Virus record (IMG/VR): IMGVR_UViG_3300009008_000002
DNA: 64,000 nt
Reading direction: 5' to 3' (one strand)
Source: a virus
Lineage: Duplodnaviria; Heunggongvirae; Uroviricota; Caudoviricetes
In this document: positions 28,105-63,570 of the stretch, piece after piece
Numbering within the stretch: position 1 is the first letter of the stretch
How the letters are laid out: each line of letters starts with the position of its first letter
Notes under the pieces: generated by a model
What the model was told of the DNA's origin: nothing
Databases searched by the model: none
What the model saw: the letters and a program-made list of their open reading frames with translations, nothing else
Program-made: the position numbers and the translations under genes

Positions 28105-28108
28105 GATC

Positions 28109-38744: not shown

Positions 38745-38807
38745 ACAAAAAAAATTCCTGCTAACTAACTTATTTTAAGTGAGTAACAATATTCAGGAGT
38801 CGAATAA

Positions 38808-39722: not shown

Positions 39723-39723
39723 T

Positions 39724-40785
39724 ATGTCAAAATCAACAATATACGATCTCCAGATCGTGATGCCAGTAACCTTTGAGGGCAAATATGGTCAAAGGTTGCT
39801 GGATTTTAAAAAGACCGGACTCCTGAATATTAAGGATAAGAAAGTGCTGGTTACTCTGCTCATTGGGCCAGAACGCGCTCCATTTTGGAAAGGCGACTGG
39901 CCCGATGGAGTAGATGTTGAAGCCATTGAGAGTCCACACAAGCAGGAAACCCCAAAAACTTATAGCTATTTCGGCACACTCAAAGCTGAAGATATAAGAG
40001 CAAGATGGATAGCCAAAATTGATGATGACACAATTAATGATGTGTCAAATTGGGTTGATAAACTAGATGAAGAATATGATCATACTAGAGAATATTATAT
40101 CGTCACTGAATTCAGACCAGAACAACATGCCCACGAAGACAACATCTTAAGAGAAATGGGATTTAATCGTTGGTTTACAACCAAGAAATGCGTCATCTGG
40201 CATGAATTAGAAGGATGCGTGGTATCTGAAGCGGCTCTTAGCAGAATAGTAAGCAATGAAACTGCGACCAAATTCATGCAAAAAAGAGCAACCATTCCAG
40301 AGGGCTACAATGACTATGCTCTAGCGTGCGCTGCTCGCATATGTAAGATTTACCCCAGCGATGCATATTTTATGTCAAAACTTCCACAGATTGGGGATCT
40401 CATGTTGTTCGGTGGACACCTTTGCCATATACATGAAATCTCACATGATAGAAACTTCCACTGCTTTGATTTAATACAAAGAATGATGAATGAAGATATA
40501 GGCAGTGAAACAGACATCCATAATGAGGTTGTAGGAAAAGAGTTTGTGTACACAAATGGACATGCGATGCTAATTGTTAAATTAGAACCAAATGGTGTAA
40601 TAAGCGGCCAACGTTCAGATGCTAGAATTTGGCATGTCAAACCAAACGGCTTTTTGGAATTTCTGAGAAGTGATGGCTCGCTGGTTGAAGTGTTTGATAA
40701 TTATGAAAACACAAATTTTATGGAAGGGTATCACGACAAAAACTCACGCCTACCAGGAAAACCTCAACTCAGAAAACTAGCATGA
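39724..40785 (+). CDS. hypothetical protein (353 aa)
   Basis: ORF directly coupled to the upstream MTase. Confidence 0.4.
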   Translation: MSKSTIYDLQIVMPVTFEGKYGQRLLDFKKTGLLNIKDKKVLVTLLIGPERAPFWKGDWPDGVDVEAIESPHKQETPKTYSYFGTLKAEDIRARWIAKIDDDTINDVSNWVDKLDEEYDHTREYYIVTEFRPEQHAHEDNILREMGFNRWFTTKKCVIWHELEGCVVSEAALSRIVSNETATKFMQKRATIPEGYNDYALACAARICKIYPSDAYFMSKLPQIGDLMLFGGHLCHIHEISHDRNFHCFDLIQRMMNEDIGSETDIHNEVVGKEFVYTNGHAMLIVKLEPNGVISGQRSDARIWHVKPNGFLEFLRSDGSLVEVFDNYENTNFMEGYHDKNSRLPGKPQLRKLA

Positions 40786-40801
40786 TTTTATTATATACAG
40801 T

Positions 40802-41464
40802 ATGAAACTGGTTGCATTCTATAATAAATCATATGAGCCATTAAAAAAACGATTTCTCAAGTCCCTCCTTGATGACTTTGAGCTAGATATAGATTTCATT
40901 CCAATAAAAGCAAACGAAAACACGCCAGGAGGAGGTCGTTCAATATGGAAAGCCAGAACAAAATGGACAGCAGACAAAATCCAAAAATACAAAAATGAAA
41001 TAGTATTATTCTGTGATTTGGATATTCAATTTTTCCAGCCAATCAAAGACAATATCCTAGCCTTATTGAATGACAATGATATACTATTTCAAAGAGCCAA
41101 ACCCAATAGAAAACCAATTAATATTGGAGTTATGGTAGTCAAATGCAACAAAAAAACTGAAACTTTGTGGAGGTTAGCGAGCAATATTTCACACTATTAT
41201 AAAATTCAAGACGAAGATATAATAAACACCCTATTAAGCTCTCAAGTAACCAATCCACTTCAAATAAAATATGATTTCCTACCATTAACCTATGCTATCA
41301 CTAATTACATAAATAATTCTACTATTGTTGACTTGATGTTACACCATGAAACATCTACTAGATTTATAGAAAGCAAACTAGAAGTTATGTCCAAAATAAA
41401 AAAAAGATGGGAGAAGGGAATGAGAGAAAAGGAGAGGAAAGTCTCCCGACCGTGCTATTTATAA
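40802..41464 (+). CDS. hypothetical protein, possible nucleotide-sugar transferase-like
   Basis: ORF; FCDLDIQFF resembles GT-A DxD context (weak). Confidence 0.35.
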   Translation: MKLVAFYNKSYEPLKKRFLKSLLDDFELDIDFIPIKANENTPGGGRSIWKARTKWTADKIQKYKNEIVLFCDLDIQFFQPIKDNILALLNDNDILFQRAKPNRKPINIGVMVVKCNKKTETLWRLASNISHYYKIQDEDIINTLLSSQVTNPLQIKYDFLPLTYAITNYINNSTIVDLMLHHETSTRFIESKLEVMSKIKKRWEKGMREKERKVSRPCYL

Positions 41465-42255
41465 ACATTAGCATTTGATACACGATGCACTTTTGGGCGA
41501 GCACTCTTTGGGTTTTCATGTGTAGAATAATCAGAATAATCGAAATCCCCTAAATAATCTGCCTCAATATTGAAATATTCTAAAAAAACCAATTGATTAG
41601 TTATAATTGCTTCCAGATCAAAAGATGAACCCACTCTGCCACTTTGCTTGCTAATCCTCTCATCGTGACAATGGTGCTTATAATATTGAGGACAACAGCC
41701 TATCATCGTAGCTTTTTGAATACCACAAAACCACATAAAATGAATCAATGTAGTAATGCTGCCTGTATGTGCAAAAAGTGATTTTTGCTTGATGATTTCA
41801 TTTTTATCTAAACACCAATTTGGAAACTTTTTTATATCCATAGATTTATTTTTGTACCAATCATCTGGAGTAGAACCAAAAGTGGGAACATAATATAATC
41901 GTTTGACTTCTGGTTTTATGTCTTTTATGGATTTTAACCAAACTGTTTCTGACCATGCTCTCTCAAAATCTAAAAATTTATCAGGATTTCTAAAATAAAC
42001 AAGTGGACAAAGATACAAGGATTTAGAAACTAAACCACAAGCTGGATAGGGAGGGTGATGGGTTACAAGAAAGGATTCATTAACATATTTCTCAAATCTT
42101 ACTGCATCATTTACTAAAAATACAGGACAAGAAAAATCGGATAAATCCCTATAATCAAAAAGTGTAGGGCCAGATGCTACAACTACTGCATTTTTTCCTT
42201 TGAAACAGTCTTTATACTGACTCAACACAGCTACATTAGAGTAATGTTGCAACAT
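41455..42255 (-). CDS. hypothetical protein (266 aa)
   Basis: ORF. Confidence 0.35.
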   Translation of the reverse strand: MLQHYSNVAVLSQYKDCFKGKNAVVVASGPTLFDYRDLSDFSCPVFLVNDAVRFEKYVNESFLVTHHPPYPACGLVSKSLYLCPLVYFRNPDKFLDFERAWSETVWLKSIKDIKPEVKRLYYVPTFGSTPDDWYKNKSMDIKKFPNWCLDKNEIIKQKSLFAHTGSITTLIHFMWFCGIQKATMIGCCPQYYKHHCHDERISKQSGRVGSSFDLEAIITNQLVFLEYFNIEADYLGDFDYSDYSTHENPKSARPKVHRVSNANVYK

Positions 42256-42949
42256 ACCCGTATCTCTTCCGCAAGGCCAGAAACTTCTCTTTCACCTCAC
42301 CATCGGGAATTTCATCTACAGTGAAGTCTTTTTCCCTCTTGCGCATAGTGTTTGTCTTTTTATTGCGAAATGTTATGTCCTGTTTTGGAATATCCAAGAA
42401 TTCAAAAAAGTCATCTTTAAATTCGTCTTCTACCCGCTTGAAATAATAAGGACGATCCTTACAAGCGTCTTCTATTTTTGTATTCCAAATAGTCCAAAAA
42501 CAACAGGCCCTTTCAATAGGGTTTTCATACATGTTTAATTCTGGAACTTGTGCCCACATCCACTCTTCCCACTTTCCATCCTTGTTGAACTTGTTATCTT
42601 CCAATAACTGAAAATAATGCAGGTCTTTCACAAAAGAACTTACGACAGACAACGGCTCCCGCACTACATGGATAACTGGGATACTTTCAATGATTTCATG
42701 CCTCAAATATGGAACCGCCATATAACTGGAATCTGCCACTATGTTTTCTAATTCCAACCACCCTTGGTTATCAGCCACCTTGCTTATCGTAAGGTCTACA
42801 AAACCGTAAGCCCTACCAATGACTTCTTTCTCTTTGTCTTGATTGAAGACGCTTTCGTGACCACATTGAATGCCTAAACTCGTTAAAATACGAGCCATAT
42901 AAACAGTGCCACTTCTGCCAGTTCCAGTTACAATAAATTTGAGTCGCAT
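42236..42949 (-). CDS. sulfotransferase-like P-loop protein
   Basis: N-terminal FIVTGTGRSGTVYM PAPS-binding-like loop; paralog of 44066..44695. Confidence 0.5.
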   Translation of the reverse strand: MRLKFIVTGTGRSGTVYMARILTSLGIQCGHESVFNQDKEKEVIGRAYGFVDLTISKVADNQGWLELENIVADSSYMAVPYLRHEIIESIPVIHVVREPLSVVSSFVKDLHYFQLLEDNKFNKDGKWEEWMWAQVPELNMYENPIERACCFWTIWNTKIEDACKDRPYYFKRVEDEFKDDFFEFLDIPKQDITFRNKKTNTMRKREKDFTVDEIPDGEVKEKFLALRKRYGYVATLL

Positions 42950-42962
42950 ACTTTATTAAAGT

Positions 42963-44069
42963 ATGTTCAAGAAAAAATATGATGTGTTAGTTTGTGGTGC
43001 AGGTCTGTATGGCAGCACTTTCGCTAGAACGGCAGCAGAAGCAGGGCAGAAGGTTCTATTAGTTGAGAAGAACCCATATGTATCAGGGCACACCTTCACA
43101 AAAACAATCGAAGGAATTCCTGTGCATGTCTACGGCCCCCACTACTTTCACACTAATAGTAAAAAAATATGGGACTGGGTGACTCAATTTGGCGAATTCA
43201 ACACATATCAAGCCAAAGTAAAAGCCATGCACCAGGGAAACATCTACTCGCTCCCATTTAATATGATGACTTTTTATCAGATGTGGGGATGTGTGACGCC
43301 AGGGGAAGCAAGACAAAAAATCAAAGAGCAACAAGTTAAAATAGAATCACCCCGAACCCTTGAAGAATTTGCCTTATCTGAAATTGGCAGAGACCTTTAT
43401 AATGTTTTTGTATATGGTTATTCTAAAAAACAATGGGGCAGAGAGCCTAAGAACTTGCCCGCCTCAATAATTAGAAGAATACCTGTCAGATACACATATA
43501 ACGACAACTACCATAGAGCGCGACATGCGGGCGTCCCAATAAGGGGCTACACACATTTAGTAGAAAACATCATAGATCACCCCAACATAGAGCTTCAATT
43601 AAACACCGACTTCTTCGATGTCCCCAAATGGCAACGACTTGCAAAGAAACTGGTCTATTCTGGTCCTGTTGATCAATTGTTTGATTATCAATATGGGAAA
43701 TTAGAATACCGAAGTTTAGAATTTAAGCACGTTGTAGCAGACAGCGAAGATTTTCAAGGCGCAGGCCAAGTGAACTACACCGAAGATGGTGTCCCATATA
43801 CGAGAATATCAGAACACAAACACTTCTATCCTGAAGCTAAATTTGAAAAATCCGTCATCAGTTTTGAATATCCCAAAATATGGGAAGAAGGCATGGAAAG
43901 GTTCTACCCTGTTCCTATCGCAAAAAACCTTGAAACTTGCTATAAATATTCCAAATTAGTAGCTAATGAAAATGATTTAATTGTTGGAGGTCGATTGGGA
44001 ACCTACAAATATCTTGACATGGATATGGTAATAGGCATGGCACTTAAAGATGCCTCTCAAGACAAATGA
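42963..44069 (+). CDS. glf: UDP-galactopyranose mutase
   Basis: N-terminal FAD motif YDVLVCGAGLYGSTFA…GQKVLLVEKNPYVSGHTFT and C-terminal GRLGTYKYLDMDMVIGMAL are diagnostic of Glf. Confidence 0.85.
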   Translation: MFKKKYDVLVCGAGLYGSTFARTAAEAGQKVLLVEKNPYVSGHTFTKTIEGIPVHVYGPHYFHTNSKKIWDWVTQFGEFNTYQAKVKAMHQGNIYSLPFNMMTFYQMWGCVTPGEARQKIKEQQVKIESPRTLEEFALSEIGRDLYNVFVYGYSKKQWGREPKNLPASIIRRIPVRYTYNDNYHRARHAGVPIRGYTHLVENIIDHPNIELQLNTDFFDVPKWQRLAKKLVYSGPVDQLFDYQYGKLEYRSLEFKHVVADSEDFQGAGQVNYTEDGVPYTRISEHKHFYPEAKFEKSVISFEYPKIWEEGMERFYPVPIAKNLETCYKYSKLVANENDLIVGGRLGTYKYLDMDMVIGMALKDASQDK

Positions 44070-44695
44070 AAAGCCATGTGATAATATCAGGCACAGGACG
44101 GACTGGGACTTCTTTTTTGGTAAACCTTCTAACAAGATTAGGGTTAGACACAGGTTTTAATAATGTAAACGGATACCACATAAATTGTAGAGCAGGATTT
44201 GAAAAAGAATTCAAAGAAAAGAATCTCCCCTATATTATAAAAAACCCATATTTCTGCGATTATGCAGAAGACATAATCAGAGATAAATCAATGATTATAG
44301 ATCATGTCTACATCCCCATGAGAGACATAGATGCAGCAGTGGCTAGTAGACAATTTGTAGTAGATAGCTCACAAGATACTCATGGGCATCTCCCGCCCTC
44401 AAAAATACCGGGCGGTTTGTGGGGAACGGATAAAAAAAATGAACAGAAAAACATTCTACTCAACCATTTTTACAAACTACTCTTAGCACTATCGAAAGAA
44501 TCAATACCTGTTACAATCCTAAATTACCCAAAATTGGTGAAAGATGTTAAATATCTCTACAGCAAACTGCAATTTCTAGTGAAAGAGATTGAATATCGAA
44601 AATTTAAAACGGTATTTGAAGAAACCGTAAACCCAAACTGGGTACATTCTTTCAATGAAAAAGATGTCTGTTCTTCCACAAAAATTTATCTTTAA
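44066..44695 (+). CDS. sulfotransferase-like P-loop protein
   Basis: VIISGTGRTGTSFLVNLL N-terminal loop; paralog of 42236..42949. Confidence 0.5.
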   Translation: MKSHVIISGTGRTGTSFLVNLLTRLGLDTGFNNVNGYHINCRAGFEKEFKEKNLPYIIKNPYFCDYAEDIIRDKSMIIDHVYIPMRDIDAAVASRQFVVDSSQDTHGHLPPSKIPGGLWGTDKKNEQKNILLNHFYKLLLALSKESIPVTILNYPKLVKDVKYLYSKLQFLVKEIEYRKFKTVFEETVNPNWVHSFNEKDVCSSTKIYL

Positions 44696-44703
44696 TCCGA
44701 GAG

Positions 44704-45315
44704 ATGCCAATGTTAATTCCAAATAGAGATAAGGTGGGCATCTTAAACAAGTTAATATCCAAATTTAACTACACCAACTACTTAGAAATAGGCATCGATC
44801 AAGCACAATGTATAAGCAACATCACAGCTTCCAAAAAGACAGGCGTTGATCCTTCTCCTGATGTTTTAAAGATGAAACTCAAAAACACCGAATTCATCTG
44901 CGTAACTTCGGATTGTTTTTTCAGTCTCTATCAAGATAAATACGATTTGATTTTTATAGATGGATGCCACTATTACCAACAAGTCTATAGAGATATTGTT
45001 AATTCCATCAATCAACTAAATGCAAATGGCACTATTGTTGTCCACGATTGCAACCCCAAAACAGAGATGGCACAACGAGTTCCTAGACAAAGCAGATATT
45101 GGTCTGGTGATGTGTGGAAAGCAATCGTCAGATTAAGACAAGAACTGACTGATTATGAAATCTTCGTAATAGATGTTGATTGTGGAATAGGCATAATAAG
45201 ACAAGGCAAAAATGAACCATTAATTTTAACGAAACCCATTAATGACTTAACATGGATTGACCTCCATCAGAATAGAACATCCTACTTAAACATCAAACCA
45301 ATTACAGAACTGTAG
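44704..45315 (+). CDS. class I SAM-dependent methyltransferase (Methyltransf_24-like)
   Basis: LIFIDGCHYYQQVYRD and NGTIVVHDC resemble 21970..22581 (IIFDDGSHQVKHQ / PGGVYIIEDL). Confidence 0.5.
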   Translation: MPMLIPNRDKVGILNKLISKFNYTNYLEIGIDQAQCISNITASKKTGVDPSPDVLKMKLKNTEFICVTSDCFFSLYQDKYDLIFIDGCHYYQQVYRDIVNSINQLNANGTIVVHDCNPKTEMAQRVPRQSRYWSGDVWKAIVRLRQELTDYEIFVIDVDCGIGIIRQGKNEPLILTKPINDLTWIDLHQNRTSYLNIKPITEL

Positions 45316-45322
45316 GGGGGAA

Positions 45323-46072
45323 ATGAATAAATTATTAGTAGCATCAGTATATTGCGATTACAGTCACAATGAAGTGTGGAGTCAATTGCAAAAAAAGTTC
45401 CTAACTGAAACAACAGAAGTGGGATATGACTACGCTGTGTACTTAAATAGAGCAAATTCTGCTTTCTTCAAAAAAGACATCATAATAGGCTCCACAAAAA
45501 AAAGAAACAAACGAAGCATCTCACACGATCATGCATCAGGATTAAAACACATACTAGAATATTTTAAAAACTCCCATTACGATTATTGTCTCATTCTTGA
45601 TAGTGATTGTTTTCCTTTTGCCCCCAATTGGTTCTCTAGCATTATAAAAAAAATGGGAGAGTTTGATTTAGCAGCTATGTTAAGACTTGAAGACCTGAGT
45701 GTATACCCACATCCTGCTGCTATGTTCTTTAACCGAAACGCTCTCAATTTTATCTCATTTGAACCATCATTAGTAATGAATTTCTTGAATATTGATTGGC
45801 TAGATGTGGGTGGCCTAATTCCATTAAACAAAACATATCCTTTAATAAGAACTAACAAATACAACCCTCATCCCGTTTTTGCTGGAATCTACGCTGATAC
45901 CTTCTATCATCACGGTTGTGGTTCAAGAAAACCGCACTTTAAATCCCAAGAACACTATGAATACACTAATGAAGACAATGAGAGATTGGAAAGAATAATT
46001 TTCCAATCTCTAATGAGAAATCCCGAAAAATTCATCAAGAGACTAATGAGCAGCAACATCGTTTATATGTAA
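45323..46072 (+). CDS. hypothetical protein (249 aa)
   Basis: ORF. Confidence 0.4.
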   Translation: MNKLLVASVYCDYSHNEVWSQLQKKFLTETTEVGYDYAVYLNRANSAFFKKDIIIGSTKKRNKRSISHDHASGLKHILEYFKNSHYDYCLILDSDCFPFAPNWFSSIIKKMGEFDLAAMLRLEDLSVYPHPAAMFFNRNALNFISFEPSLVMNFLNIDWLDVGGLIPLNKTYPLIRTNKYNPHPVFAGIYADTFYHHGCGSRKPHFKSQEHYEYTNEDNERLERIIFQSLMRNPEKFIKRLMSSNIVYM

Positions 46073-46702
46073 AGCCATCAAATAATCTTCTTGATAATCT
46101 ATGTCTATTGATTCCGGCCATTTTATCTCAAAAAAAATAGGATTGTTGCCATAATAATAGTGGTTTTTAATCATATTCTCTCTAGGTTGAATGAATATAC
46201 CACCATCTTGTTCAAAAATCGGTTCCAACTCAGAGGCAACAGTGTGATTTATCAAAGGTTTGAAATTAAGAGGCTCTTGTCGATACCAAAAATGCCCATG
46301 AACCACTCTGACAGAGAAGAGTGAATCATATTCAGGCGAACTTGCCAACAAATCTATAGCACGATCATAAGTTGAACTTTTGATTAAAGGATTGGTACAA
46401 TGTGCCCATATTATTAAATCAGTTTCAACTGATTCCACTAAATTAGCAATCATTTTGTTTGCAAGTGTATCAGCACGACAATACTTTGCTGGTATTTCTA
46501 AAACCTCTGCTCCAGCAGACTGTGACAACGATAATATTTCATCTGAATCCGATCCAACTACGATTCTATCTATGTTTTTGCAACAACTCAAACATGCTAT
46601 CTTGTGTTCTATCAAAGAACCAGAATCACCAAAAGGCAAGAAGTTCTTATTTTTTAAACGAACACTGTTTTTTTTAGATGGAATAATTGCAGTTCTTTCC
46701 AT
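46043..46702 (-). CDS. acylneuraminate (nonulosonic acid) cytidylyltransferase, NeuA/CMP-sugar synthetase-like
   Basis: AIIPSKKNSVRLKNKNF N-terminal signature of CMP-NeuAc/CMP-Kdo synthetases. Start trimmed to MERTAIIP; its ATG abuts the stop of the upstream synthase gene. Confidence 0.65.
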   Translation of the reverse strand: MERTAIIPSKKNSVRLKNKNFLPFGDSGSLIEHKIACLSCCKNIDRIVVGSDSDEILSLSQSAGAEVLEIPAKYCRADTLANKMIANLVESVETDLIIWAHCTNPLIKSSTYDRAIDLLASSPEYDSLFSVRVVHGHFWYRQEPLNFKPLINHTVASELEPIFEQDGGIFIQPRENMIKNHYYYGNNPIFFEIKWPESIDIDYQEDYLMALHINDVAAH

Positions 46703-46703
46703 T

Positions 46704-47549
46704 TTACTTACCATAAATTCGATGTAAAAGAAATTTTTCCTCCTTTGTATCCATCCCAAATTTAGCATCAAAAGCACAAGAAGGTAAATTTGGCGTTGGA
46801 TTATCAATTTTAATGAGTTTAAATTCCTCCGGCTCAAGACTGCACGATATGTGATGGGCGTAAGAACTCCTGCTGATACAAAAATGTCGCTCAACAAAAT
46901 CTGCTCCCATATTTATTGCTCCATAGGTTCCATTTAATCCACATTCATGCCCCGAATAACCTATTTTAATTCGTTTACTGCCGAAATATTTCTTCAACAC
47001 CCTAATGTTACCCAATCGCAGTTCTTCGTCAGGACAAGGATAAATAGCTACACAGTGATTTATAATGATTTTATTTTGTTGGGCAAACAAATCAAGCACA
47101 TTTTCAATATGCGATAAATCCAAACCAGCCAAAGAAACTACCAGAGTTTTTTCTTTCGGAATCAGCGATTTCACAGCACTCAAAAATTGAGCATTACTTG
47201 CATTAATAGATGAAATCTTATACATTGGCAAGTCAAAATCTAACATAAATTCAAAAGATGCAATATCCTGTGCTGTTACAAACCATTTAGCGCCAAGCTC
47301 TTGACACCTTTGATCAAATTGCAAAAATTCATCTTTGCTAAACTCAAACATACTTCTGTATTCTCTGTATGTCTTGCCATATGGGCTTTTATATGCAGAA
47401 TTTAACTCCTCATTGCTGTAAAAACCTTCAATGTCTTTCTTTTGTAATTTAATGTAATCCGCACCAGATGACACTGCTGCTTCCAACATCCTTAATGATA
47501 ACTTAAAATTACCCAAATGATTGGTTGTAAATTCCGCTACTGTTTTCAT
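46704..47549 (-). CDS. N-acetylneuraminate (nonulosonic acid) synthase NeuB-like
   Basis: NHLGNFKLSLRMLEAAVSSGADYIKLQ, KISS, HCVAIYPCP, IGYSGHE are conserved NeuB/PseI/LegI family motifs. Confidence 0.8.
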   Translation of the reverse strand: MKTVAEFTTNHLGNFKLSLRMLEAAVSSGADYIKLQKKDIEGFYSNEELNSAYKSPYGKTYREYRSMFEFSKDEFLQFDQRCQELGAKWFVTAQDIASFEFMLDFDLPMYKISSINASNAQFLSAVKSLIPKEKTLVVSLAGLDLSHIENVLDLFAQQNKIIINHCVAIYPCPDEELRLGNIRVLKKYFGSKRIKIGYSGHECGLNGTYGAINMGADFVERHFCISRSSYAHHISCSLEPEEFKLIKIDNPTPNLPSCAFDAKFGMDTKEEKFLLHRIYGK

Positions 47550-47609
47550 TTTAAATCTCTCAACAGACAGACCACCCCTACTATATAAAATACTAGGAAA
47601 ATCAAGAAA

Positions 47610-48464
47610 ATGATCAAAAATTACCTATTTAACACACATCCCACCATCATCCATAGCCCAGGCAATAATGGTTTTTTCAAGGATATTGTGCTAGAATTTC
47701 GCAACACTCGACAAAGAAACAAAAAAACCCCCGTTGAGGACTGTGAAGTTTTCACTTGGAACAATAGAGGTCGTCCAGGCGTATTGGAAAAAAGTTTAGA
47801 AAAACTAGGGTGCCCATATACTGTAATGGGAGGGAAAATAGCAAAATCACTGTGGAAAAATATATTCAAAGTCTATCTTACTGTCCGATTCTTAAAAACC
47901 GTCAAAACAAAGTATGTAATGGGAATAGATTCATTTGATGCTATCTTCACGAAACACCCCAACCATGCACTTGAGTTGTTTAAAGAATTCAAAAAACCAC
48001 TGATATTCAACGCAACAACAGCGCCTAACCTCACCATAACTAAACAAATGAGAGATTGGGAAAAGACACTATACCCCAATCAATTAAATGGATTTCTTAA
48101 TGCGGGAGCTTGGATTGCAGAAACACAATACGCCAGAGAGTTTTTTCAAAAAGTCTTAGAAAAAAGTCGCCACAGAAAAAAAACCATCAACAAACACGCA
48201 AAAAAAGGCACGCTCATACAGCCACCTAACCGACACCCTAACTTTTTGAAGAACCCACTTTTAAAAAATAGATACATACAATTCCTGAGCCAAAGCGAAC
48301 AGTTAATTGTTAAGTGGGTTTTTAAAGAAACATATCCAACAGTAAACATAGACACCAAACAAAAAATAATGGCCTGTCTAAATATGCCTGAATATTACCC
48401 AGTAAAACTGCGGCAAGATTTTGGACTTAAAATATTAAAACAAAACAAGATTCGCTTTTTTTAG
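47610..48464 (+). CDS. hypothetical protein (284 aa)
   Basis: ORF. Confidence 0.4.
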   Translation: MIKNYLFNTHPTIIHSPGNNGFFKDIVLEFRNTRQRNKKTPVEDCEVFTWNNRGRPGVLEKSLEKLGCPYTVMGGKIAKSLWKNIFKVYLTVRFLKTVKTKYVMGIDSFDAIFTKHPNHALELFKEFKKPLIFNATTAPNLTITKQMRDWEKTLYPNQLNGFLNAGAWIAETQYAREFFQKVLEKSRHRKKTINKHAKKGTLIQPPNRHPNFLKNPLLKNRYIQFLSQSEQLIVKWVFKETYPTVNIDTKQKIMACLNMPEYYPVKLRQDFGLKILKQNKIRFF

Positions 48465-49621
48465 AGATAAAGTTTATTCCGCTTGCACACAATGATAACA
48501 TTCCTTCTATTGCAAAAATATCCAGGTATATATTGCATGTCTTTAACATCAATTAAGGAACAAATTTCATCAATTCCCATAGCAACATGAGGAAAATCCT
48601 TTTTGTCTAATGAATCTTTATTGTGTTCCATAACAAGCAGATGATCGCAACACTTGCGAGCCTTTTTATAAACAGCCTGAAAATATTCTACCGGCACTCT
48701 GTTGCCTAATAAAATATGCAATGATAAACACTTAAATGTCTTGCGCGATTTTAAGAAGTCACGGTAGTATATGCCTTCATACGACTTGAATGGCCCGCGA
48801 GATTGTCTTTTACAAGCCCATCTTGAAGAATGATGTATTTCAGCAACCTCGTCTCCAGCAAGTTGATGCAATGCATTTGTCGCATATTTATGAGGGCTAC
48901 CGTCTTTTGCTTTATTGTCAGGAGTGCTTTCCCAAATACACCAATTAGTTCGTTTTTGTATTGGTTTTGATTTGAAGTTTCCTCTAATATTTGAGATCCA
49001 CACTACAACCATACTATTTTTAAATTCTCTACTTGAACAAAAACTGCCTATATCGTCACAAACATATGTGATCCTATCCTGCATTTTATCAAGATTCGAG
49101 CGTAGATTCTCTTGTGATCTAAGGAATCCATAATCATAACCAGCCCATACTTTGGTTCTCGTTTTATTTTGATTTGGCAATATATCTAACTCAAGATCGC
49201 TGTGGAAAATAGGAGGGGGTGGTGTCCATAATGTTCCATCAGAATGTTTCTTAATTTCGATTCCCAACTTACACCCTTCAATGTTGCAATCATCCCATAC
49301 GTTCTCTTCTAAAAGCAAATCATTATCTTCGTGAAAACGTTTTGCAAACTTAAACCCTGTCATATCTTCGATGATTTTAAGACGATCATTTGGGTTATCA
49401 ACAATTGCTTTTAGGGTGCGTTTATGATGCTCTAATTGAGCTTCGGACACATCAACAAAATACATATGTTTTATTTTATCTGGACTTATATCATCTAATA
49501 AATATGACAACATATGAAACGATGCATGATTGCCAACAGCTATTACCACAACCGAGCTATCTTTTGATATTGATGGAATTTCAGGGCAGAACGCACACCA
49601 ATCATTAGAAAAGACATACAT
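48461..49621 (-). CDS. hypothetical protein (386 aa)
   Basis: ORF. Confidence 0.4.
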   Translation of the reverse strand: MYVFSNDWCAFCPEIPSISKDSSVVVIAVGNHASFHMLSYLLDDISPDKIKHMYFVDVSEAQLEHHKRTLKAIVDNPNDRLKIIEDMTGFKFAKRFHEDNDLLLEENVWDDCNIEGCKLGIEIKKHSDGTLWTPPPPIFHSDLELDILPNQNKTRTKVWAGYDYGFLRSQENLRSNLDKMQDRITYVCDDIGSFCSSREFKNSMVVVWISNIRGNFKSKPIQKRTNWCIWESTPDNKAKDGSPHKYATNALHQLAGDEVAEIHHSSRWACKRQSRGPFKSYEGIYYRDFLKSRKTFKCLSLHILLGNRVPVEYFQAVYKKARKCCDHLLVMEHNKDSLDKKDFPHVAMGIDEICSLIDVKDMQYIPGYFCNRRNVIIVCKRNKLYL

Positions 49622-49747
49622 ACCAAACTCGCTTAAAGATAAAGTTTTTCTGACTCATTAGGGACAAACAAGAAATGGTCCCTTCTCCCTAAAGGATATA
49701 CACTCGACACCCTCCTTCCACCAGCATTAATTATGTAGTCTCAACCA

Positions 49748-50545
49748 TCAGTAAATCTTCCTCTTTTTCTCTATAGCCTTTTTCCATGAAGGTGACACCA
49801 CTTGTTTAGTTACAACATCTCTAGGATACTTAAAATACCCACAATACATACAGCATTTTGCAAGCCTATCTCTTGCTTCATTATCTGTCGCATCCAATAA
49901 CTGCTTAAGTGTAGTCACGCCCGTCTTAAGATCAAATACCCTATCCACATGATAAGACACTTCACATGAATAATACAAACCATCAGCACCTAATGCGCAC
50001 CCTCCGCATTTGGTTACTCGTGAACAAAGTTGTCGAAACACTTTTTTATCAATATCTTTATATTCTGGCGTGTCAATTGGAGACACATTGAAACTTTCAA
50101 ATATGTTCCAAATTTTATTTGGGATAGAATTTTGATTTTGTAATTTCAACCATTTAGGCAATCCCTTTGTAAATTCTGAATTGGTTCCATTAGTTAGCAG
50201 TTTAAATTGACAAACTGGTATTCTTAAGCCCGACTTTTTAATAGATGATCTATTAAAAAGTCTATATTTATCCAACAAAAAAACAATCTCTTTGAATTGA
50301 GGGTGTAGTGTAGGTTCTCCCCCTGTTAATTTGATTGTATCCCAACAACATTTGAGTGATATTGCATCTTCAATAAATTTCTCAACATGCTTGAGGCTTA
50401 TGTGGGTAAAATCAGGAGCTATTCCGACACATGCCTGACAATTAGGACATCTAAGATTACACATATTTGTCACATTTATTTCAAATATATGTCTGTTAAT
50501 GTGCCAAACCACATTGGTTTTATATTCTTCGTTTCCATGAAACAT
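49748..50545 (-). CDS. radical SAM enzyme
   Basis: CNLRCPNC (CxxxCxxC) cluster near the N-terminus plus GGEP-like TGGEPTL. Confidence 0.6.
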   Translation of the reverse strand: MFHGNEEYKTNVVWHINRHIFEINVTNMCNLRCPNCQACVGIAPDFTHISLKHVEKFIEDAISLKCCWDTIKLTGGEPTLHPQFKEIVFLLDKYRLFNRSSIKKSGLRIPVCQFKLLTNGTNSEFTKGLPKWLKLQNQNSIPNKIWNIFESFNVSPIDTPEYKDIDKKVFRQLCSRVTKCGGCALGADGLYYSCEVSYHVDRVFDLKTGVTTLKQLLDATDNEARDRLAKCCMYCGYFKYPRDVVTKQVVSPSWKKAIEKKRKIY

Positions 50546-51249
50546 TACATAATCCTTTCCTTTTTGCTAAAATTCGTCAATTTAGTGGACTTTTGTTTAA
50601 AGTGAGTGTTAGCAGCACATCTGCCGCACGCACCCAGAGGATCATTCATCAATCGCTCTTTGATTTCCAACAAACCATCGACATAATTCAAAGTCAATTC
50701 ATTGCTCAATGAATATGGGCAATCTAAATATAAAGACAACCCGTGAGCACAACAATAAATCCTTCTGTTGTAATACCACCACTTGTCATATTCACAAACA
50801 GCCGGGGTGGTCCCTTGTATCGGAGATTCGGGGATTGGATAAAACTTTTCTCTAGGCACAATCCTCACCTTATCTCCGAACTGTTGCTTCAGTTGTTTAA
50901 CTTCCTTTGAATTGGCTCGATATGCAGAAATTCTAATTTCGTTAAAACAATCTGCCACTTCATTATTCAAAGCATCTATATTCAGTGCATTGGTAAACAT
51001 CAACATTCCACAACATGTGTCTGATTCCCTTAATAATTTAACCCCTTCTTGTAAATTAGACCACAGCAAAGGCTCGCCACCACTTATCGTATACTTAAAT
51101 TTATAGCCAGATTTATGTGTTATTTCAATAAACTCCTCTAGATCAGGAATGGATATTTCATAATCACAACTTTCCATAAGTGGTCGCATAATGCAATTAG
51201 CACAATGTAGGTTGCACTTTGAAGTGCTAAACAACGAGAGTTCTTTCAT
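50545..51249 (-). CDS. radical SAM enzyme
   Basis: CNLHCANC (CxxxCxxC) and ISGGEPLL glycine-rich SAM motif. Confidence 0.6.
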   Translation of the reverse strand: MKELSLFSTSKCNLHCANCIMRPLMESCDYEISIPDLEEFIEITHKSGYKFKYTISGGEPLLWSNLQEGVKLLRESDTCCGMLMFTNALNIDALNNEVADCFNEIRISAYRANSKEVKQLKQQFGDKVRIVPREKFYPIPESPIQGTTPAVCEYDKWWYYNRRIYCCAHGLSLYLDCPYSLSNELTLNYVDGLLEIKERLMNDPLGACGRCAANTHFKQKSTKLTNFSKKERIM

Positions 51250-52073
51250 TTAAAAACCTTTACACGATCTGTAATTTCGTATGGGGGAAATAAATCCTTA
51301 TCACATCTGCCAATGACACCTTCATTTATCATACTGTGCTTCCTTGTTTTGTAAATCTCCGACTTATACCCTATGTGTTGACACACGCCTCGCTTCAACA
51401 CACCAACTGCCACGTTCGCCTTCCGACAATTATCAACCCAAAAATCATCCATATCTCTAGTTTGAACGATGTTGTTTTCAAAAAGAACAGGCTTCTTTTC
51501 ACACAACATTTTGCTAATCATCAACAATACGCCGCCAACATTCCCTTGAGCAATTTCATCCATATGGGTATTTACTCCCCGAAATTTCACCCTTCCAAAA
51601 AAATGCCGGAATCCTGATATAATGCCAAACTCACCATCCTGACTCGCTTGACACATCTTGTGATACCACCCATCTTTAAAAACAGCATCATCTTGCACCT
51701 TTATTACATGAGAACATGAACATTCTAAAAAAGCCAACCTGACCACATCCGTAAAATGCTTAACCCCCTTGATAGTTTTGTGGATCACCACATTAGCCTT
51801 GCCACTAATTCCCTTGACAGATTTGTAATTTGGCAACACACCCATCTGCTTCACCCAAACTTGAGAAACAGGAAAGGTCCAGTCATCTATTTCAATCTCA
51901 TTAGATGTAGTTAAATATTCCACCATCTTAGCGTTCTGTGTGCCATCATTGCTAATGTAAACTGGCACGCTAGATGGAACCGTTGCGCTTAGGCTTTTCA
52001 TAGTAATATCCAAAAGCCTAATCCTATCCTTACAAGTCACAACTATAGGAATTATTGGATGATGACGTATCAA
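51246..52073 (-). CDS. putative GT-A-fold glycosyltransferase
   Basis: PIVVTCKDR…YISNDGT resembles GT2 N-terminal region (weak). Confidence 0.4.
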   Translation of the reverse strand: MIRHHPIIPIVVTCKDRIRLLDITMKSLSATVPSSVPVYISNDGTQNAKMVEYLTTSNEIEIDDWTFPVSQVWVKQMGVLPNYKSVKGISGKANVVIHKTIKGVKHFTDVVRLAFLECSCSHVIKVQDDAVFKDGWYHKMCQASQDGEFGIISGFRHFFGRVKFRGVNTHMDEIAQGNVGGVLLMISKMLCEKKPVLFENNIVQTRDMDDFWVDNCRKANVAVGVLKRGVCQHIGYKSEIYKTRKHSMINEGVIGRCDKDLFPPYEITDRVKVFK

Positions 52074-52687
52074 GAAACAACCTCGCTTATAAAAAGAAAC
52101 TTACTTTTTCTAGGGAAGGCACTCATTGCTGCCTCAAAAATATCCGGCAACCCATCCTTGTTTTTCTGCTCTTGTACATGACTGTGAAATGTATGAAATT
52201 CAGAATTTTCATACCAAACTGATCTCATTTTCTCTTGTCCCAAATTAAAATGGTAAATCCTATCAGCATTCACATCATAATAACCCTTCATGGCTGAAAT
52301 CAGAAACCCTTTCTTATTCAAAACATTTGCGGTTATTTGATCCATCATCCACCACGGGGACTTGAATCCGCGATAAAAATACCGCTCATAAGGAAATTCA
52401 ACTTCCGTCTTATTAAACCATTCTTTTCTGTCTCTATGATTGCTGCCATGATAGTGCATTTCTATCCAGTCATATTTTTCCTGAATCATGGCAAGCCACT
52501 GCTCGCTACACCGAAGCGGAATAGTAAACATGGTTATCTTTAAATGAGGGTAGTGATCTTTGAGATAGAACAACTTGTTCCACAACTGAGGATTCATAAT
52601 ATCCTCACAGAAATCATCAAGATCAAATACAACTGGTTTACTAGAAAAAAGCATAAATATATATATGAAAATCATATGGGCAATCAC
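52070..52687 (-). CDS. hypothetical protein (205 aa)
   Basis: ORF. Confidence 0.35.
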   Translation of the reverse strand: MIAHMIFIYIFMLFSSKPVVFDLDDFCEDIMNPQLWNKLFYLKDHYPHLKITMFTIPLRCSEQWLAMIQEKYDWIEMHYHGSNHRDRKEWFNKTEVEFPYERYFYRGFKSPWWMMDQITANVLNKKGFLISAMKGYYDVNADRIYHFNLGQEKMRSVWYENSEFHTFHSHVQEQKNKDGLPDIFEAAMSAFPRKSKFLFISEVVS

Positions 52688-53459
52688 AACCTACAATCGC
52701 CTCAAATATTTAAAACAATGCATAGAATCCTGGGAAAGAACACATAACCCAAAACACCAATGGACACTCATAGCTTGTGACGATGGCTCAAATGATGGGA
52801 CTAAAAAATATCTAAAATCACATGGATTCAAAATATTTAAGCACAACCGGCGAGGGGTTCACCATCAAACAAACACAATTATAAAACACTGCTCTAAAAT
52901 AGACTTTGACATAACCTTCAAGACAGATGACGACATAACATTTAAACAGAAAACATGGGACGATAGGTATATTGAAGCCATTACAGAGACCGGATGTGAT
53001 CATCTGAATTTCCACGATTTAAAATGGAAACGAAAGAAACACAAACGAGCTACAATAAGTCACCCATCTGCGTTGATAGAAAACAAAGCGGTGAATAGTG
53101 ACACACAAGGAGCTTGTTGGACATTCACACCCCAAGTTATTGAAAAAGTAGGGTATTTTGATTTGCAAAAATTTGGGGCGTGTGGATTCGGGCATCGTGA
53201 CTACACATTTAGATGCTGTAGGGCCGGTTTTAATGTGTTGGATTCCATATATGACATCAAAGACAGCAATAAATATCTGGGATTAATCAAAAAGGATTAC
53301 CAATCGGCATCTGAGGATTATTTTAAAATATGGAATGAGAATTTCAAAACATGGAATATACGCGAAAAAAAAGCATTACTTCGCACTAATAGAGTGTATG
53401 TTCCATACAACACAATTCATTACAATATTCTAGGACAGCCATTATACAGACTTTTCTGA
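52665..53459 (+). CDS. family 2 glycosyltransferase
   Basis: IIWAITTYNR…LIACDDGSNDGT (canonical GT2 DDGSxDGT). Confidence 0.6.
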   Translation: MKIIWAITTYNRLKYLKQCIESWERTHNPKHQWTLIACDDGSNDGTKKYLKSHGFKIFKHNRRGVHHQTNTIIKHCSKIDFDITFKTDDDITFKQKTWDDRYIEAITETGCDHLNFHDLKWKRKKHKRATISHPSALIENKAVNSDTQGACWTFTPQVIEKVGYFDLQKFGACGFGHRDYTFRCCRAGFNVLDSIYDIKDSNKYLGLIKKDYQSASEDYFKIWNENFKTWNIREKKALLRTNRVYVPYNTIHYNILGQPLYRLF

Positions 53460-53936
53460 AGCCTTATCCTTATCAGATACAACAATAGGATCAACAGGCC
53501 ACTCAATACCGAAACTGGTATAGTGGTAATTTTTATCTTGCCCTGGCTTCCAAATATCCCCTTGTAGATACAACAAAATGGTATCATCAACATTAGAATA
53601 AAACCCATGCGCACAATTTGATGGTATGAAAAGATGCTCTGCCTCTTCACCTGATAACCATGTGCCAAACCATTGTTTGTAAGTTTTAGAATCTTCTCTT
53701 AAGTCCACGACCACATCATAAAGACGACCCTTCAAACACTGAACAAATTTAGAATAAGGCGAACAATGCAATCCCCTAATAACCCCTTTTCCAGAAACCG
53801 AATAACTGGTTTGTTTAAAATCACAATGATAATCACCATCTTGTATGTAAATGGTCTGGAAATAACCTCTATCGTCCGCAAATCTATTCCCAGAAAATAA
53901 AAAACAACCCTCAAATAATGTCTTCTTAAGTTCCAT
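53442..53936 (-). CDS. dTDP-4-dehydrorhamnose 3,5-epimerase (RmlC)-like cupin sugar epimerase; start trimmed to MELKK
   Basis: FADDRGYF…GVIRGLH…KFVQCLKGRLYDVVVDLR…IPSNCAHGF matches RmlC family conserved blocks. Confidence 0.7.
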   Translation of the reverse strand: MELKKTLFEGCFLFSGNRFADDRGYFQTIYIQDGDYHCDFKQTSYSVSGKGVIRGLHCSPYSKFVQCLKGRLYDVVVDLREDSKTYKQWFGTWLSGEEAEHLFIPSNCAHGFYSNVDDTILLYLQGDIWKPGQDKNYHYTSFGIEWPVDPIVVSDKDKASEKSV

Positions 53937-53970
53937 TCTTTCTCTCCTTTCCAACACTATATAAAATACT

Positions 53971-54162
53971 ATGGAAAAAATCAAGACGTTCAAAGAATGG
54001 CTAGAACTAAAAGAGGGCCTGTGGTTAAATGATAGCAATTCCGAACCTAATGGCACGGCTGTCAATGATGACAGAAAAAGCGGCTGGATGAAAGCCAAAG
54101 CTGGAGGAGGTATGGCGGCGGCTGGAGGATTCGGAAACATGGCTCTTGGAGGTCGTAGGTGA
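53971..54162 (+). CDS. hypothetical Gly-rich small protein
   Basis: ORF; GTGA overlap with the next ORF. Confidence 0.3.
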   Translation: MEKIKTFKEWLELKEGLWLNDSNSEPNGTAVNDDRKSGWMKAKAGGGMAAAGGFGNMALGGRR

Positions 54163-61055: not shown

Positions 61056-61895
61056 TCAAATAGAAAATGTGACAAGTTCCGGCAACATGACGACTGAGAG
61101 TTTACCACCTAACCCAGCCCCCGTATCTACCATGATCCTACCATGTCTAGGGTTGTTCACGGATTTCACAACCAGAACATCAGGCACATTCAAGTGACCT
61201 GAAACTACAATTTTGGGATAATTGACGACTCGATAAGGAATATTAAATGAATGAAGCCAAGGATTTCTGTATATATTGTCACGATTTCTGAGAACTTTAA
61301 GCTGATCAGGAATCGTGGGCCAATTTTGCAAACCATTCTCTTTAGGCATACCAATACACTGCTGCGGTTCATGGTTGCTAGGCCAAACAGTCTGATCAGG
61401 AACCAATCCCGAATGCACAAAAATATAATCAGGATGCTCGACACACCACGGCATCATATTGATGAACTTTTTGTGATGAAACGGCACCCGGTTCATTAAA
61501 GAAAACCAATCCATGTGATTGCATCCGTAGGACGAAAAAGTGTATCTGGAATACTTGTGCGTGGCCCAAGTGTCTCTTACCCTAGCCTTACGCCCCAAAT
61601 AATCAATGGCACCTATGGCCACACCAAAACCTAAATCGTGATTTCCCAAACACGCAGTACACTTGTGCTTCTCAGTCAACTCGATAACGGTTTCAATCGT
61701 CTCTTTTTGCTTCCTGCCATAATGATCAACAATGTCGCCCAAAAAAACAATCCACCTATCTTCGGTTAGATAGCCTTCTTTCTTTATCTTATTTAAAAGA
61801 TAATCAAGACGATCCTTCTCGCCATGAACATCTCCAAAAACAGCTACCGGGCCGTAAATCCTTTGAGGTAGGGTGTTGTTAAAGTGGTGGATCAT
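61056..61895 (-). CDS. calcineurin-like metallophosphoesterase, lambda-phosphatase/PPP-family-like
   Basis: GDVHG, GDIVDHYG, GNHD motifs in canonical order. Confidence 0.75.
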   Translation of the reverse strand: MIHHFNNTLPQRIYGPVAVFGDVHGEKDRLDYLLNKIKKEGYLTEDRWIVFLGDIVDHYGRKQKETIETVIELTEKHKCTACLGNHDLGFGVAIGAIDYLGRKARVRDTWATHKYSRYTFSSYGCNHMDWFSLMNRVPFHHKKFINMMPWCVEHPDYIFVHSGLVPDQTVWPSNHEPQQCIGMPKENGLQNWPTIPDQLKVLRNRDNIYRNPWLHSFNIPYRVVNYPKIVVSGHLNVPDVLVVKSVNNPRHGRIMVDTGAGLGGKLSVVMLPELVTFSI

Positions 61896-61962
61896 ATCAG
61901 TATAAATGAGAACATAAATGTTTTTTTTAAGTTATTTTGGTGTTGACTCCGATACATAAAAT

Positions 61963-62616
61963 ATGAAGAAAAAATGTTCAAAATGCCAGGAAAACAAAGA
62001 CTCGGAAGCCTTCACAAAAAGATCATCATCCAAAGATGGATTACACCCGTGGTGTAGAAGTTGTGTCCAAGATTACAATAAAAACCATCACAAGAGAAAC
62101 AAAAAATCTGCTAATGTAAGAAATAAAAAATGGCGAGAAAACAATGTAGAATACAACAAAGAAAGAAATAGAAAATGGATGGTAGAAAATGCAGAATACC
62201 GTCAAGAGTATAAAAAACGGCACAGAAAAGAAAATAGAGAAAAAATAAATTCATACAAAAGACAAAGAAGACTAGAGTTGTCCCAAGACCCACTATTCCG
62301 ACTTGAGACCAACCTTAGAAAAAGACTTTATAGAGCTATTAAAAAAATAGAGGGAAACGCTCTTGAAAACAAAAGCATCTCCCTCGAAAGCAGCAATTTA
62401 CTTGGTTGTTCTATTCAGGATTTACAAAAACACCTTGAAAAGCAATTCACCAAAGAAATGAGTTGGAACAATTATGGACAATGGCACGTAGACCATATTC
62501 GTCCAGTTTCCAGTTTTGATCTAACTGACAAATCTCAAGTTCAAGAATGTTTTCATTATGCAAATTTACAACCTTTATGGGCCAAAGATAACTACAAGAA
62601 GGGTTCATCATATTAA
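61963..62616 (+). CDS. HNH endonuclease with N-terminal Cys4 zinc finger and basic repeat region
   Basis: C-terminal GQWHVDHIRPVS…NLQPLWAKDN (HNH: H-N-H with DH and N..N). N-terminal CSKC…CRSC. Repeated NKKWRENNVEYNKERNRKW-like basic units. Confidence 0.75.
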   Translation: MKKKCSKCQENKDSEAFTKRSSSKDGLHPWCRSCVQDYNKNHHKRNKKSANVRNKKWRENNVEYNKERNRKWMVENAEYRQEYKKRHRKENREKINSYKRQRRLELSQDPLFRLETNLRKRLYRAIKKIEGNALENKSISLESSNLLGCSIQDLQKHLEKQFTKEMSWNNYGQWHVDHIRPVSSFDLTDKSQVQECFHYANLQPLWAKDNYKKGSSY

Positions 62617-63377
62617 TAAGCCCAACTTGCCTTTCTCAATCACATCCCTTACCTTCGTAGTTTTCTTGCCTGTGCGGTGATCTACCGCTCGACTCTGGAT
62701 GTAATTGTAAGTGCGAATCTTGTCTGAACCGCTACCATCACCTATTTGCTCTTTACGACGCCGATCATAATCCTTCTGATCTTGTTTCGATTTCATTTTT
62801 GAAACCTTTACAGAAAGAATACGATGCGCCTCACGTCGGTTTTGGTGTTGATTGCGACCATCAATCACAACTTGCATGTTGGTTGGTCGATGAATCATCC
62901 TCACACAAGATTCTGTACGATTGCGATGTTGTCCTCCAGGCCCTTGACCTACTGCTGTTTTAACTTCTAATTCGCTTTCTGGCAATAATTTAACCTCACG
63001 CTTTGAAGGCATAGGCAAAACTGCCACCATAACAAAAGAAGTCTGGCGGCGTCCTTTACTCTCCGTAGGTGGGACTCGCTGAATGCAATGCACACCAGCC
63101 TCTTGGCTAAACAGAGTCGCAGCTTTTTGACCAGAAATGCGGGATGTTACTTCACCCTTGACTGAATCAAGGATTTCAACTTTTAGGCCATTAGATTTGG
63201 CAAACTTAACATAAGCTGCAAAAAGATCATGGACGAATAATTTAGAATCTTCGCCCCCTTTGCCAGCATGGACCTCTAGGATGATCTCATTAGACTGGCT
63301 AAAGACACCCCCATCCCTTCAACGTGTTCTGTGTGTTTTGCGCATTGTTAAAGATACCTCCGATTTCTTTTACCCAT
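62608..63377 (-). CDS. class I peptide chain release factor homolog (RF1-like PxT/GGQ) lacking domain 1; frame assembled via two putative +1 frameshifts (at 63351..63348 and 63302..63299)
   Basis: Contiguous frame 63301..62608 encodes LEVHAGKGGEDSKLF…IQRVPPTESKGRRQTS…GQGPGGQHRN…DKIRTYNY…DHRTGK (RF domains 2-4). No in-frame start codon exists upstream of domain 2 in that frame. An upstream SD+ATG mini-ORF (63377) and two CUU-stop-C shift sites connect the frames. Confidence 0.55.
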
Positions 63378-63570
63378 TTTCTTGTCCTCCATATTGATAA
63401 AGTAATTCTTCGACGGTAATGGGTTTACCGTCTCGGTCAAACACTAAAACATTGTCTGGTTGTCTAGTATCTATCGCCACACTCAGTCTTTTGCACCTGT
63501 TGTTGCGCAGCCAACTCCAATCTTCGTCACGGAGTTTGATCAGATACTCAATCAGGCTATCAACGTCCAT
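63370..63570 (-). CDS. hypothetical protein (66 aa)
   Basis: ORF; 3' end overlaps the SD/mini-ORF of the RF gene. Confidence 0.3.
   Translation of the reverse strand: MDVDSLIEYLIKLRDEDWSWLRNNRCKRLSVAIDTRQPDNVLVFDRDGKPITVEELLYQYGGQENG

Follow-up and report, generated by a model that had tools for sequence, protein, structure and literature searches.

A device by which a release factor throttles its own synthesis through frameshifting has so far been reported only for the RF2 gene, prfB. In Escherichia coli, the prfB shift site reads AGGGGG-TAT-CTT-TGA-C, and when CUU occupies the P site and the A site holds a stop codon that is terminated inefficiently because C follows it, the outcome is either release by a class I factor or a +1 slip (PMC12421855). 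A 2025 survey detected no programmed frameshift in prfA across 12,753 genomes, and TAG in none of the prfB motifs (0/8,164), and assigned frameshift-based autoregulation of release factors to RF2 only (PMC12421855). In the present study, we analysed a 64,000-nucleotide stretch of a caudoviricete virus record (IMG/VR IMGVR_UViG_3300009008_000002; hereafter the window), which holds on its minus strand, at 63377..62608, a gene for an RF1-like class I release factor without domain 1. Like prfB, this locus has near the 5′ end of the factor gene a Shine–Dalgarno (SD)-like element, a 3-nt spacer, CUU, a stop codon and C, and the expected logic is likewise competition between termination at a sentinel stop codon and slippage (PMC12421855). 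It differs from prfB in being RF1-like, in having UAA and UAG as sentinels in two tandem cassettes, in an E-site codon that is mostly UGU, and in a shift that precedes domain 2, because domain 1 is absent. We propose that the locus is probably a frameshift-gated mini-RF1 of 255 residues, comprising a 25-residue leader and RF1 domains 2–4, which would be reached through two prfB-type +1 frameshifts.

The nearest conceptual precedent is the eRF1-like gene of Mimivirus and Megavirus, which needs one frameshift and one read-through and has been interpreted as a case of bacterial-style autoregulation (PMC3521657). Both are virus-borne termination-factor genes that need two recoding events at internal stops; however, that virus is eukaryotic and its factor eRF1-like, whereas the window encodes a bacterial-type RF1 core with two +1 shifts. 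PrfH (RFH) is also a class I homologue without domain 1 (PMC1586002; PMC6514570), but it has decoding motifs of its own and lies beside RtcB2, whereas the window gene keeps the RF1 loop and adjoins no RtcB gene. Large phages of the Lak, crAss-like and Jade groups carry RF1 or RF2 as accessories of a code change, themselves encoded in the standard code (bioRxiv 10.1101/2021.08.26.457843); neither frameshift nor truncation has been reported for these, and the window element uses the standard code. A broad survey of release-factor evolution names PrfH and ArfB, and neither a mini-RF1 family nor frameshifting (PMC6514570). A full-text literature search returned no prior account of CUU-UAG frameshifting with RF1, though absence there is not proof. 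The window places a prfB-type cassette on an RF1-type gene, with UAG and, across the related loci, often doubled, which makes it possible to ask directly whether the level of RF1 can be sensed as that of RF2 is. Mora et al. are said to have reported in Mol Microbiol in 2003 that engineered RF1 and RF2 without domain 1 kept codon-dependent release in vitro and lost the interaction with RF3; those were laboratory constructs, whereas the truncation here is natural, conserved and widespread. Domain-1-less RF1 homologues form a large natural family, which is relevant to how far termination can dispense with domain 1 and RF3 and to the means by which large phages tune termination in their hosts.

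Organization of the gene start

A preliminary description made from the letters alone had taken 63377..62608 as the encoded gene and had overlooked the tandem prfB-type sites. The interval is not a single open reading frame (ORF): the ATG at 63377 and the release-factor body lie in different frames, and two +1 frame changes are needed to pass from one to the other, at 63353-63348 and 63304-63299. The body frame itself has a TGA at 63321..63319, followed by no ATG, GTG or TTG for 75 codons, until 63093. The parts of the gene are as follows.

63386..63390, minus strand: Shine–Dalgarno GGAGG, 8 nt upstream of the leader ATG (sequence)
63351..63377, minus strand: leader ORF 1, ATG GGT AAA AGA AAT CGG AGG TAT CTT, encoding MGKRNRRYL
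63347..63361, minus strand: candidate frameshift cassette 1, GGAGG-TAT-CTT-TAA-C
63302..63349, minus strand: linker ORF 2, 16 codons, NNAQNTQNTLKGWGCL, to be read after the first +1 shift
63298..63312, minus strand: candidate frameshift cassette 2, GGGGG-TGT-CTT-TAG-C (sentinel UAG, a stop specific to RF1)
63319..63345, minus strand: mini-frame MRKTHRTR-stop, ATG to TGA in the body frame (sequence)
62608..63300, minus strand: release-factor body, 230 codons plus TGA stop, corresponding to RF1 domains 2–4 (translation, profiles, model)
63247..63264, minus strand: GKGGED, the tip of helix alpha5, by which RF1 reads U1 (alignment with Thermus thermophilus RF1)
63037..63081, minus strand: recognition loop QRVPPTESKGRRQTS (alignment with T. 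thermophilus RF1)
62929..62937, minus strand: GGQ catalytic motif (GPGGQH; translation, Pfam)

In cassette 1, the SD-like element is followed by a 3-nt spacer, the slippery CUU, the UAA sentinel and C at +4. CTT-TAA at 63353..63348 and CTT-TAG at 63304..63299 each stand in the frame that leads to the next segment, the frame of linker ORF 2 is open exactly between the two shift sites, and after the second +1 shift the body would open with AGC at 63300. The window contains exactly two matches to the degenerate 15-mer GGRGGTRTCTTTARC, one at each cassette, against 0.02 expected from shuffles, and the two cassettes are 49 nt apart in the right frames. A second ATG in frame with leader ORF 1 is present at 63392, and the Shine–Dalgarno at 63386..63390 overlaps the 3′ end of an upstream 66-amino-acid ORF (63570..63370), to which translation of the leader is possibly coupled. 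The mini-frame was judged to be a by-product of the linker ORF and not a gene start. For genes of this type, gene callers gave a 140-amino-acid fragment (P0008) or fragments starting at TTG or GTG; the Leu codon called as a TTG start in loci L001 and L003 is an internal codon, since the window has CTA there. In practice, automatic annotation truncates mini-RF genes or misplaces their starts.

Identity of the release-factor body

At 63300..62608, the body encodes a class I release factor that bears RF1-like motifs but lacks domain 1. Its translation on the minus strand reads SQSNEIILEVHAGKGG...RVPPTES...GPGGQH...DKIRTYNY...DHRTGKK...GLLI-stop; longer segments of the 230 residues are SQSNEIILEVHAGKGGEDSK...HCIQRVPPTESKGRRQTSF...GQGPGGQHRN...DKIRTYNYIQSRAVDHRTGKK...GLLI-stop. 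Pfam assigned it the C-terminal half of PCRF (profile positions 99-194 of 194, E 1.4e-26) and the RF-1 domain (E 4.3e-24). Among NCBIfam models, the two for RF1 scored highest (NF001859, 220.1 bits; TIGR00019, 213.2 bits), ahead of RF2 (158), PrfH (83.6) and ArfB (24), although the body reached neither RF1 equivalog cut-off (220.1 vs 400 and 213.2 vs 423.25 bits). The RF1 models were covered only at positions 103-332 of 347 and 111-339 of 361, and because they match only from position 103 or 111 onward, the domain 1 of about 100 amino acids is missing from the gene; the matching PHROG profile (PHROG 19918, 355 positions) was also covered from position 107 only. A tblastn search with E. coli RF1 aligned residues 112-334 to 63282..62635 (E 1e-39), and domain 1 of the same query gave nothing significant in the window (best E 0.68). 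The ORFs upstream of the body had no Pfam match. The ArfB model NF006718 (24 bits vs a cut-off of 100) fits poorly; ArfB has only the GGQ domain and a C-terminal tail, and in the body the codon-recognition domain is present. Among PDB sequences searched with phmmer, RF1 chains ranked first (1e-45 to 1e-38), followed by RF2 (1e-30 to 1e-26) and PrfH (4e-9), and an AlphaFold model of the body (pLDDT 85.8) superposed best on ribosome-bound RF1 (TM 0.77-0.80), showing a predicted RF1-like fold.

At the tip of helix alpha5, GKGGED retains the equivalent of Gly116 and has Asp, invariant across the family, in place of Glu119. The recognition loop (QRVPPTE..RRQTS) keeps the equivalents of Gln181 and Thr194 and the PxT motif, as PPT and not as the SPF of RF2, while Gln replaces His193. 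The NCBIfam ranking, the PDB sequence and fold matches and the retained Gln181, PxT and Thr194 equivalents together suggest an affinity to RF1. Pfam, the start of the RF1 profile match and tblastn thus bear out the class I factor without domain 1 given in the preliminary description; no continuation of the frame into a domain 1 was found, and the profile comparison that it had recommended ranked RF1 (220 bits) above RF2 (158) and PrfH (84). Its claim of RF1-like decoding motifs is supported by PxT, as PPT, and by GGQ.

Frame breaks in a second assembly and under selection

An independent assembly (JGI 3300007510, contig Ga0105013_1039413, 4.7 kb) was identical to the window over the 203 bases compared, which include the leader and both shift sites. 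An exact 65-mer from the window had no match in IMG/VR, so that collection does not contain the contig. Against L001, which is 87% identical, the first 69 body codons, all of them preceding any canonical in-frame start, showed 30.5 synonymous and 11.5 non-synonymous differences (dN/dS 0.054), and the ratio for the whole gene was 0.036. These comparisons show strong purifying selection on the body, including the codons before any canonical start.

Shift sites in related genes

A protein search gave many matches of about 220-250 amino acids, the best 120 of which were all short. In IMG/VR, the relationship was confirmed for 316 stretches, domain 1 of which was not individually checked; many of them lie on contigs 100-570 kb long. 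Scanning metagenome contigs with the window protein recovered only canonical RF1s of ~40% identity, because DKIRTYNY-type patterns are common to both. In loci 45-87% identical to the window, a leader started by ATG runs in the −1 frame and stops at CTT-T(AG|GA|AA), at the very point at which the body frame takes over. We tabulated 37 sites from 30 loci, chosen for CTT-T and a stop in the frame leading into the body; positions −3 and −2, the position after the stop and the SD-like element lay outside these selection criteria, and conservation extends to them. Among the loci are huge-phage contigs, such as LR756511.1, and loci on Planctomycetota chromosomes. T occupied −3 in 35/37 sites and G occupied −2 in 32/37, and the E-site codon is therefore mostly UGU. 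C directly followed the stop in 31 of the 37, including both window sites. The sentinel was TGA in 17 sites, TAG in 17 and TAA in 3.

The TGT/TGC-CTT-TAG-C of cassette 2 recurs in L001, L005, L246, L247 and L248. Tandem doubles are likewise not confined to the window, where TAA precedes TAG; nine loci were classed as such. L246 and L247 carry CGGAGG-TAT-CTT-TAG-C and then TGT-CTT-TAG-C (TAG + TAG), behind leaders homologous to that of the window (MARNKRRYL-stop and MTRRYL-stop, respectively). L085 is also TAG + TAG, L015 and L026 are TGA + TGA, L017 is TAA + TGA, and LR756511.1 (L253, 413467-414959, reverse strand), a published 595-kb huge-phage genome whose record is unannotated, has TGT-CTT-TAA-C followed by CGT-CTT-TGA-C. 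L090, with the same 10-mer twice upstream of the gene, may be a further TAG + TAG double. None of the tandem doubles found mixed TAG with TGA. Loci L022 and L023 encode identical proteins with TAA and TAG, respectively, at the shift site, which fits RF1-type recognition because both are RF1 codons.

Two other arrangements were seen among the relatives. L024 and L029, together with L003/L004, have a short SD–ATG frame closed by an in-frame TGA (CAG-TGA-AGA and AGT-TGA-AGA) and no CUU-stop site; the L024 gene lies just downstream of a tRNA-like T-arm. A sister clade, L034-L083 (e.g. L035, L040 and L061), comprises short PPT-type factors about 37-41% identical to the window protein, which begin straight with domain 2 (MKRVIEIRAAEGG...). 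Exactly one in-frame TGA is present in at least 38 different sequences of this clade, always at the conserved Trp of the RF1 'KGW' (GGY TGA RC), and their flanks gave no clear sign of code 4, the coding density of the 6-kb flanks of relatives being too noisy as a measure of recoding. Judged by sequence, this looks like a second kind of sentinel-stop gating, in which read-through or suppression would insert Trp.

Proposed mechanism and alternative explanations

From this arrangement we infer actual frameshifting, the codon specificity of the product and a regulatory logic, for which the following course of events is proposed. Initiation would occur at the ATG at 63377 and MGKRNRRYL would be read, whereupon the ribosome would pause, CUU occupying the P site and UAA the A site; GGAGG, lying upstream, would pair with the anti-SD of 16S rRNA, and tRNA-Leu would slip from CUU to UUU. 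A second slip would take place 16 codons on, at GGGGG-UGU-CUU-UAG-C. The factor would be made only by ribosomes that escape termination at both sentinels, and output would fall steeply, approximately as the product of the two escape probabilities, as RF1-type termination activity rises, this activity being the sum of host RF1 and the factor itself (negative feedback). The tandem sites would thus be a natural design for a steeper dose–response. The predicted product would recognize UAA and UAG via the Q..PPT..T loop, hydrolyse peptidyl-tRNA via GGQ, and function although it could not touch the L7/L12 stalk and RF3 through domain 1; in class I release factors, loss of domain 1 is expected to bring independence of RF3 and of the stalk contact. 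In the window, UAA and UAG, the codons read by RF1-type factors, fit a product with an RF1 signature. The two cassettes, their recurrence in relatives, the selected codons that precede any canonical start, the agreeing second assembly and the absence of doubles mixing TAG with TGA also speak for the proposal.

Several observations weigh against this proposal. About half of the related sites have a UGA sentinel, a clear SD-like 4-mer was present in only 16/37 sites, L245 has a direct SD–ATG start and has lost the device, and no recognizable CUU-stop site was found in L003, L020, L024 and L029. Orthologue-like pairs that are 70-75% identical differ in sentinel (TAG in L087 and L089, TGA in L086 and L088), and the decoding loops are the same in both classes (GG-x-D-S-K; QR[VI]PPTE..GR-x-[QH]-TS); strict recognition of its own sentinel by an RF1-specific product therefore cannot hold family-wide. 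The exchanges at Glu119 and His193 also make the codon specificity of the product uncertain. With the same architecture, the sentinels might instead report the release-factor capacity of the host (UAG that of RF1 and, in relatives, UGA that of RF2) and not the level of the product, and the mini-RF might serve as a back-up in termination stress, perhaps with relaxed or omnipotent recognition or acting on ribosomes idling at any stop. We regard this as possible, though less probable than the proposal above. Proteins with identical decoding loops have TAG and TGA equally often, and the sentinel changes from one to the other between close orthologues. The stop shared by both canonical factors, TAA, is rare (3/37), two codon-reading positions are unlike those of all canonical RF1 and RF2 (E119D and, in many members, H193Q), and in the sister clade a gene of this kind appears to be gated by an in-frame UGA. 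However, Pro-x-Thr and the Gln181 equivalent constitute an RF1 signature, the alignment has no column that discriminates TAG-class from TGA-class proteins, so that altered specificity gains no positive support, and tandem genes never mix TAG and TGA, a pattern that class-specific control fits equally well. Going beyond the proposed mini-RF1 of the window, we tentatively suggest that mini-RFs may be a third, hitherto unrecognized class of bacterial-type class I release factor: domain-1-less, RF3-independent, chromosomal in Pirellulaceae-like Planctomycetota, captured by huge phages, and synthesized under licence of failed termination at one or two sentinels. If so, since one unusual loop (GG-x-D, PPT, R-x-Q/H-TS) goes with UAG, UGA and UAA sentinels alike, the factor may recognize every stop codon or serve as a back-up in termination stress, and tandem sentinels would give a switch-like response.

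Expression without frameshifting appears improbable. It could proceed by read-through of the UGA at 63321..63319 from the ATG at 63345, from a UUG start at 63322 (with the second shift only), or from an AUC start at Ile-Ile. The ATG at 63345 does sit 11 nt downstream of GGAGG, UGA followed by A is a leaky stop context, and L024 and L029 pair a short ATG frame with an in-frame TGA in place of a CTT site. Nevertheless, the body-frame TGA of relatives is an ATGA or TTGA overlap with a codon of the −1-frame leader, for which reason read-through from 63345 was dropped; the body-frame ATG is not conserved in relatives, and the FSQSNE codons that precede Ile-Ile differ from those of L001 only synonymously. 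Conservation of two complete cassettes would, in addition, be left unexplained. That the frame breaks stem from a decaying pseudogene or assembly errors is more improbable still: gene callers returned mere fragments (the 140-amino-acid P0008 or those with TTG starts), but the dN/dS of 0.04-0.05, the identical second assembly and the recurrence of such breaks at this motif across dozens of divergent loci contradict it. Similarly doubtful in the extreme is the analogy drawn in the preliminary description with PrfH, by which the factor would work with the RtcB of the window on ribosomes with damaged 16S rRNA. Domain 1 is absent, as in PrfH (PMC1586002), and an RtcB gene is indeed present in the window, at 26662..28104 (Pfam E 4.5e-85), and, as had been stated, is not adjacent. 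On the other hand, the body scored 83.6 bits with the PrfH model TIGR03072, half of its cut-off of 166.65 and far below the 220 of RF1; PDB chains of PrfH matched weakly (E 4e-9 vs 1e-45 for RF1); and the stop-codon reading loop is conserved, with the PxT that PrfH is without. The RtcB gene lies about 34.5 kb away with other partners, and relatives of the factor do not adjoin RtcB. The preliminary description also considered that a release factor on a mobile element might manipulate termination, which is possible.

Genomic context and hosts

By Pfam and PHROG, the window is ORFan-rich and contains genes for UvrD-like helicase, ParB-like, ClpX-like, TIR and RtcB proteins; no virion hallmark came to light when 20 further ORFs of the window were scanned with PHROG and Pfam. 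The release factor and the ClpX-like gene both have their top phage-database match in LR756511.1 (54%). This gene content suggests that the window belongs to a large phage or a similar element. An accessory-element setting, as first described, is plausible for the window, but the family also occurs in planctomycete chromosomes beside housekeeping genes. In L251 (GCA_038534355.1, a Planctomycetota metagenome-assembled genome [MAG]; 156-kb contig, GC 52%), the gene at 10001-10729 lies between lexA and a Glu/Gln-tRNA synthetase gene, 6 kb from rpsL-rpsG-fusA. Its leader of 28 codons ends AAC-TGG-CTT-TAG-C, and the deposited 242-amino-acid 'peptide chain release factor-like protein' has its annotated start at a GTG of the body frame, the leader having been missed. 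The nine closest matches in species-representative genomes were all from uncultured Pirellulaceae MAGs; the chromosomal copies L086, L089 and L091 adjoin housekeeping genes, and the Pirellulaceae copies have among their neighbours genes for MetRS, a PilB-type ATPase, and FG-GAP and TPR proteins. It is likely that the phage copies have been exchanged with Pirellulaceae-like hosts.

Genome-wide recoding of TGA was rejected, because the standard code gives 91% coding coverage, 34/86 ORFs end in TGA and many gene junctions of the window are ATGA overlaps; stop-to-stop statistics alone were uninformative in this respect. A suppressor tRNA was also rejected, the window having only a tRNA-Met and a poorly structured 90-nt 'tRNA-Trp(cca)'. 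The latter, called by ARAGORN at 34346..34435 on the minus strand, combines poorly paired stems with a long variable arm. Rather than a suppressor, this is probably a degenerate tRNA or a false call.

Downstream, an endonuclease VII/HNH-like gene (61963..62616, plus strand, phrog_1035) runs towards the release-factor gene, with a 9-nt overlap at the 3′ end of the latter. The endonuclease gene and a metallophosphatase gene (61056..61895) separate the release-factor gene from two SPFH/Band_7 genes, which in L001 directly follow it; the window stretch 61056..62616 thus looks like an insertion relative to L001. The RtcB gene (26662..28104, minus strand, 480 amino acids) has upstream of it a Prok-E2_D-like gene (28109..28624) and, at 28566..29576 on the minus strand, a gene whose product joins an AAA_33 kinase to a circularly permuted YpsA/SLOG domain, and the three (26662..29576) may form an RNA-repair or modification module of their own. 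The 351-amino-acid protein encoded at 10704..11759 on the minus strand carries a TIR domain at its C terminus (TIR_2, E 2.7e-22); phage-like elements do not usually carry such cargo. At about 36000..54000, the G+C content of the window falls to 0.35-0.40, against about 0.45 elsewhere, and ORFs occur on both strands.

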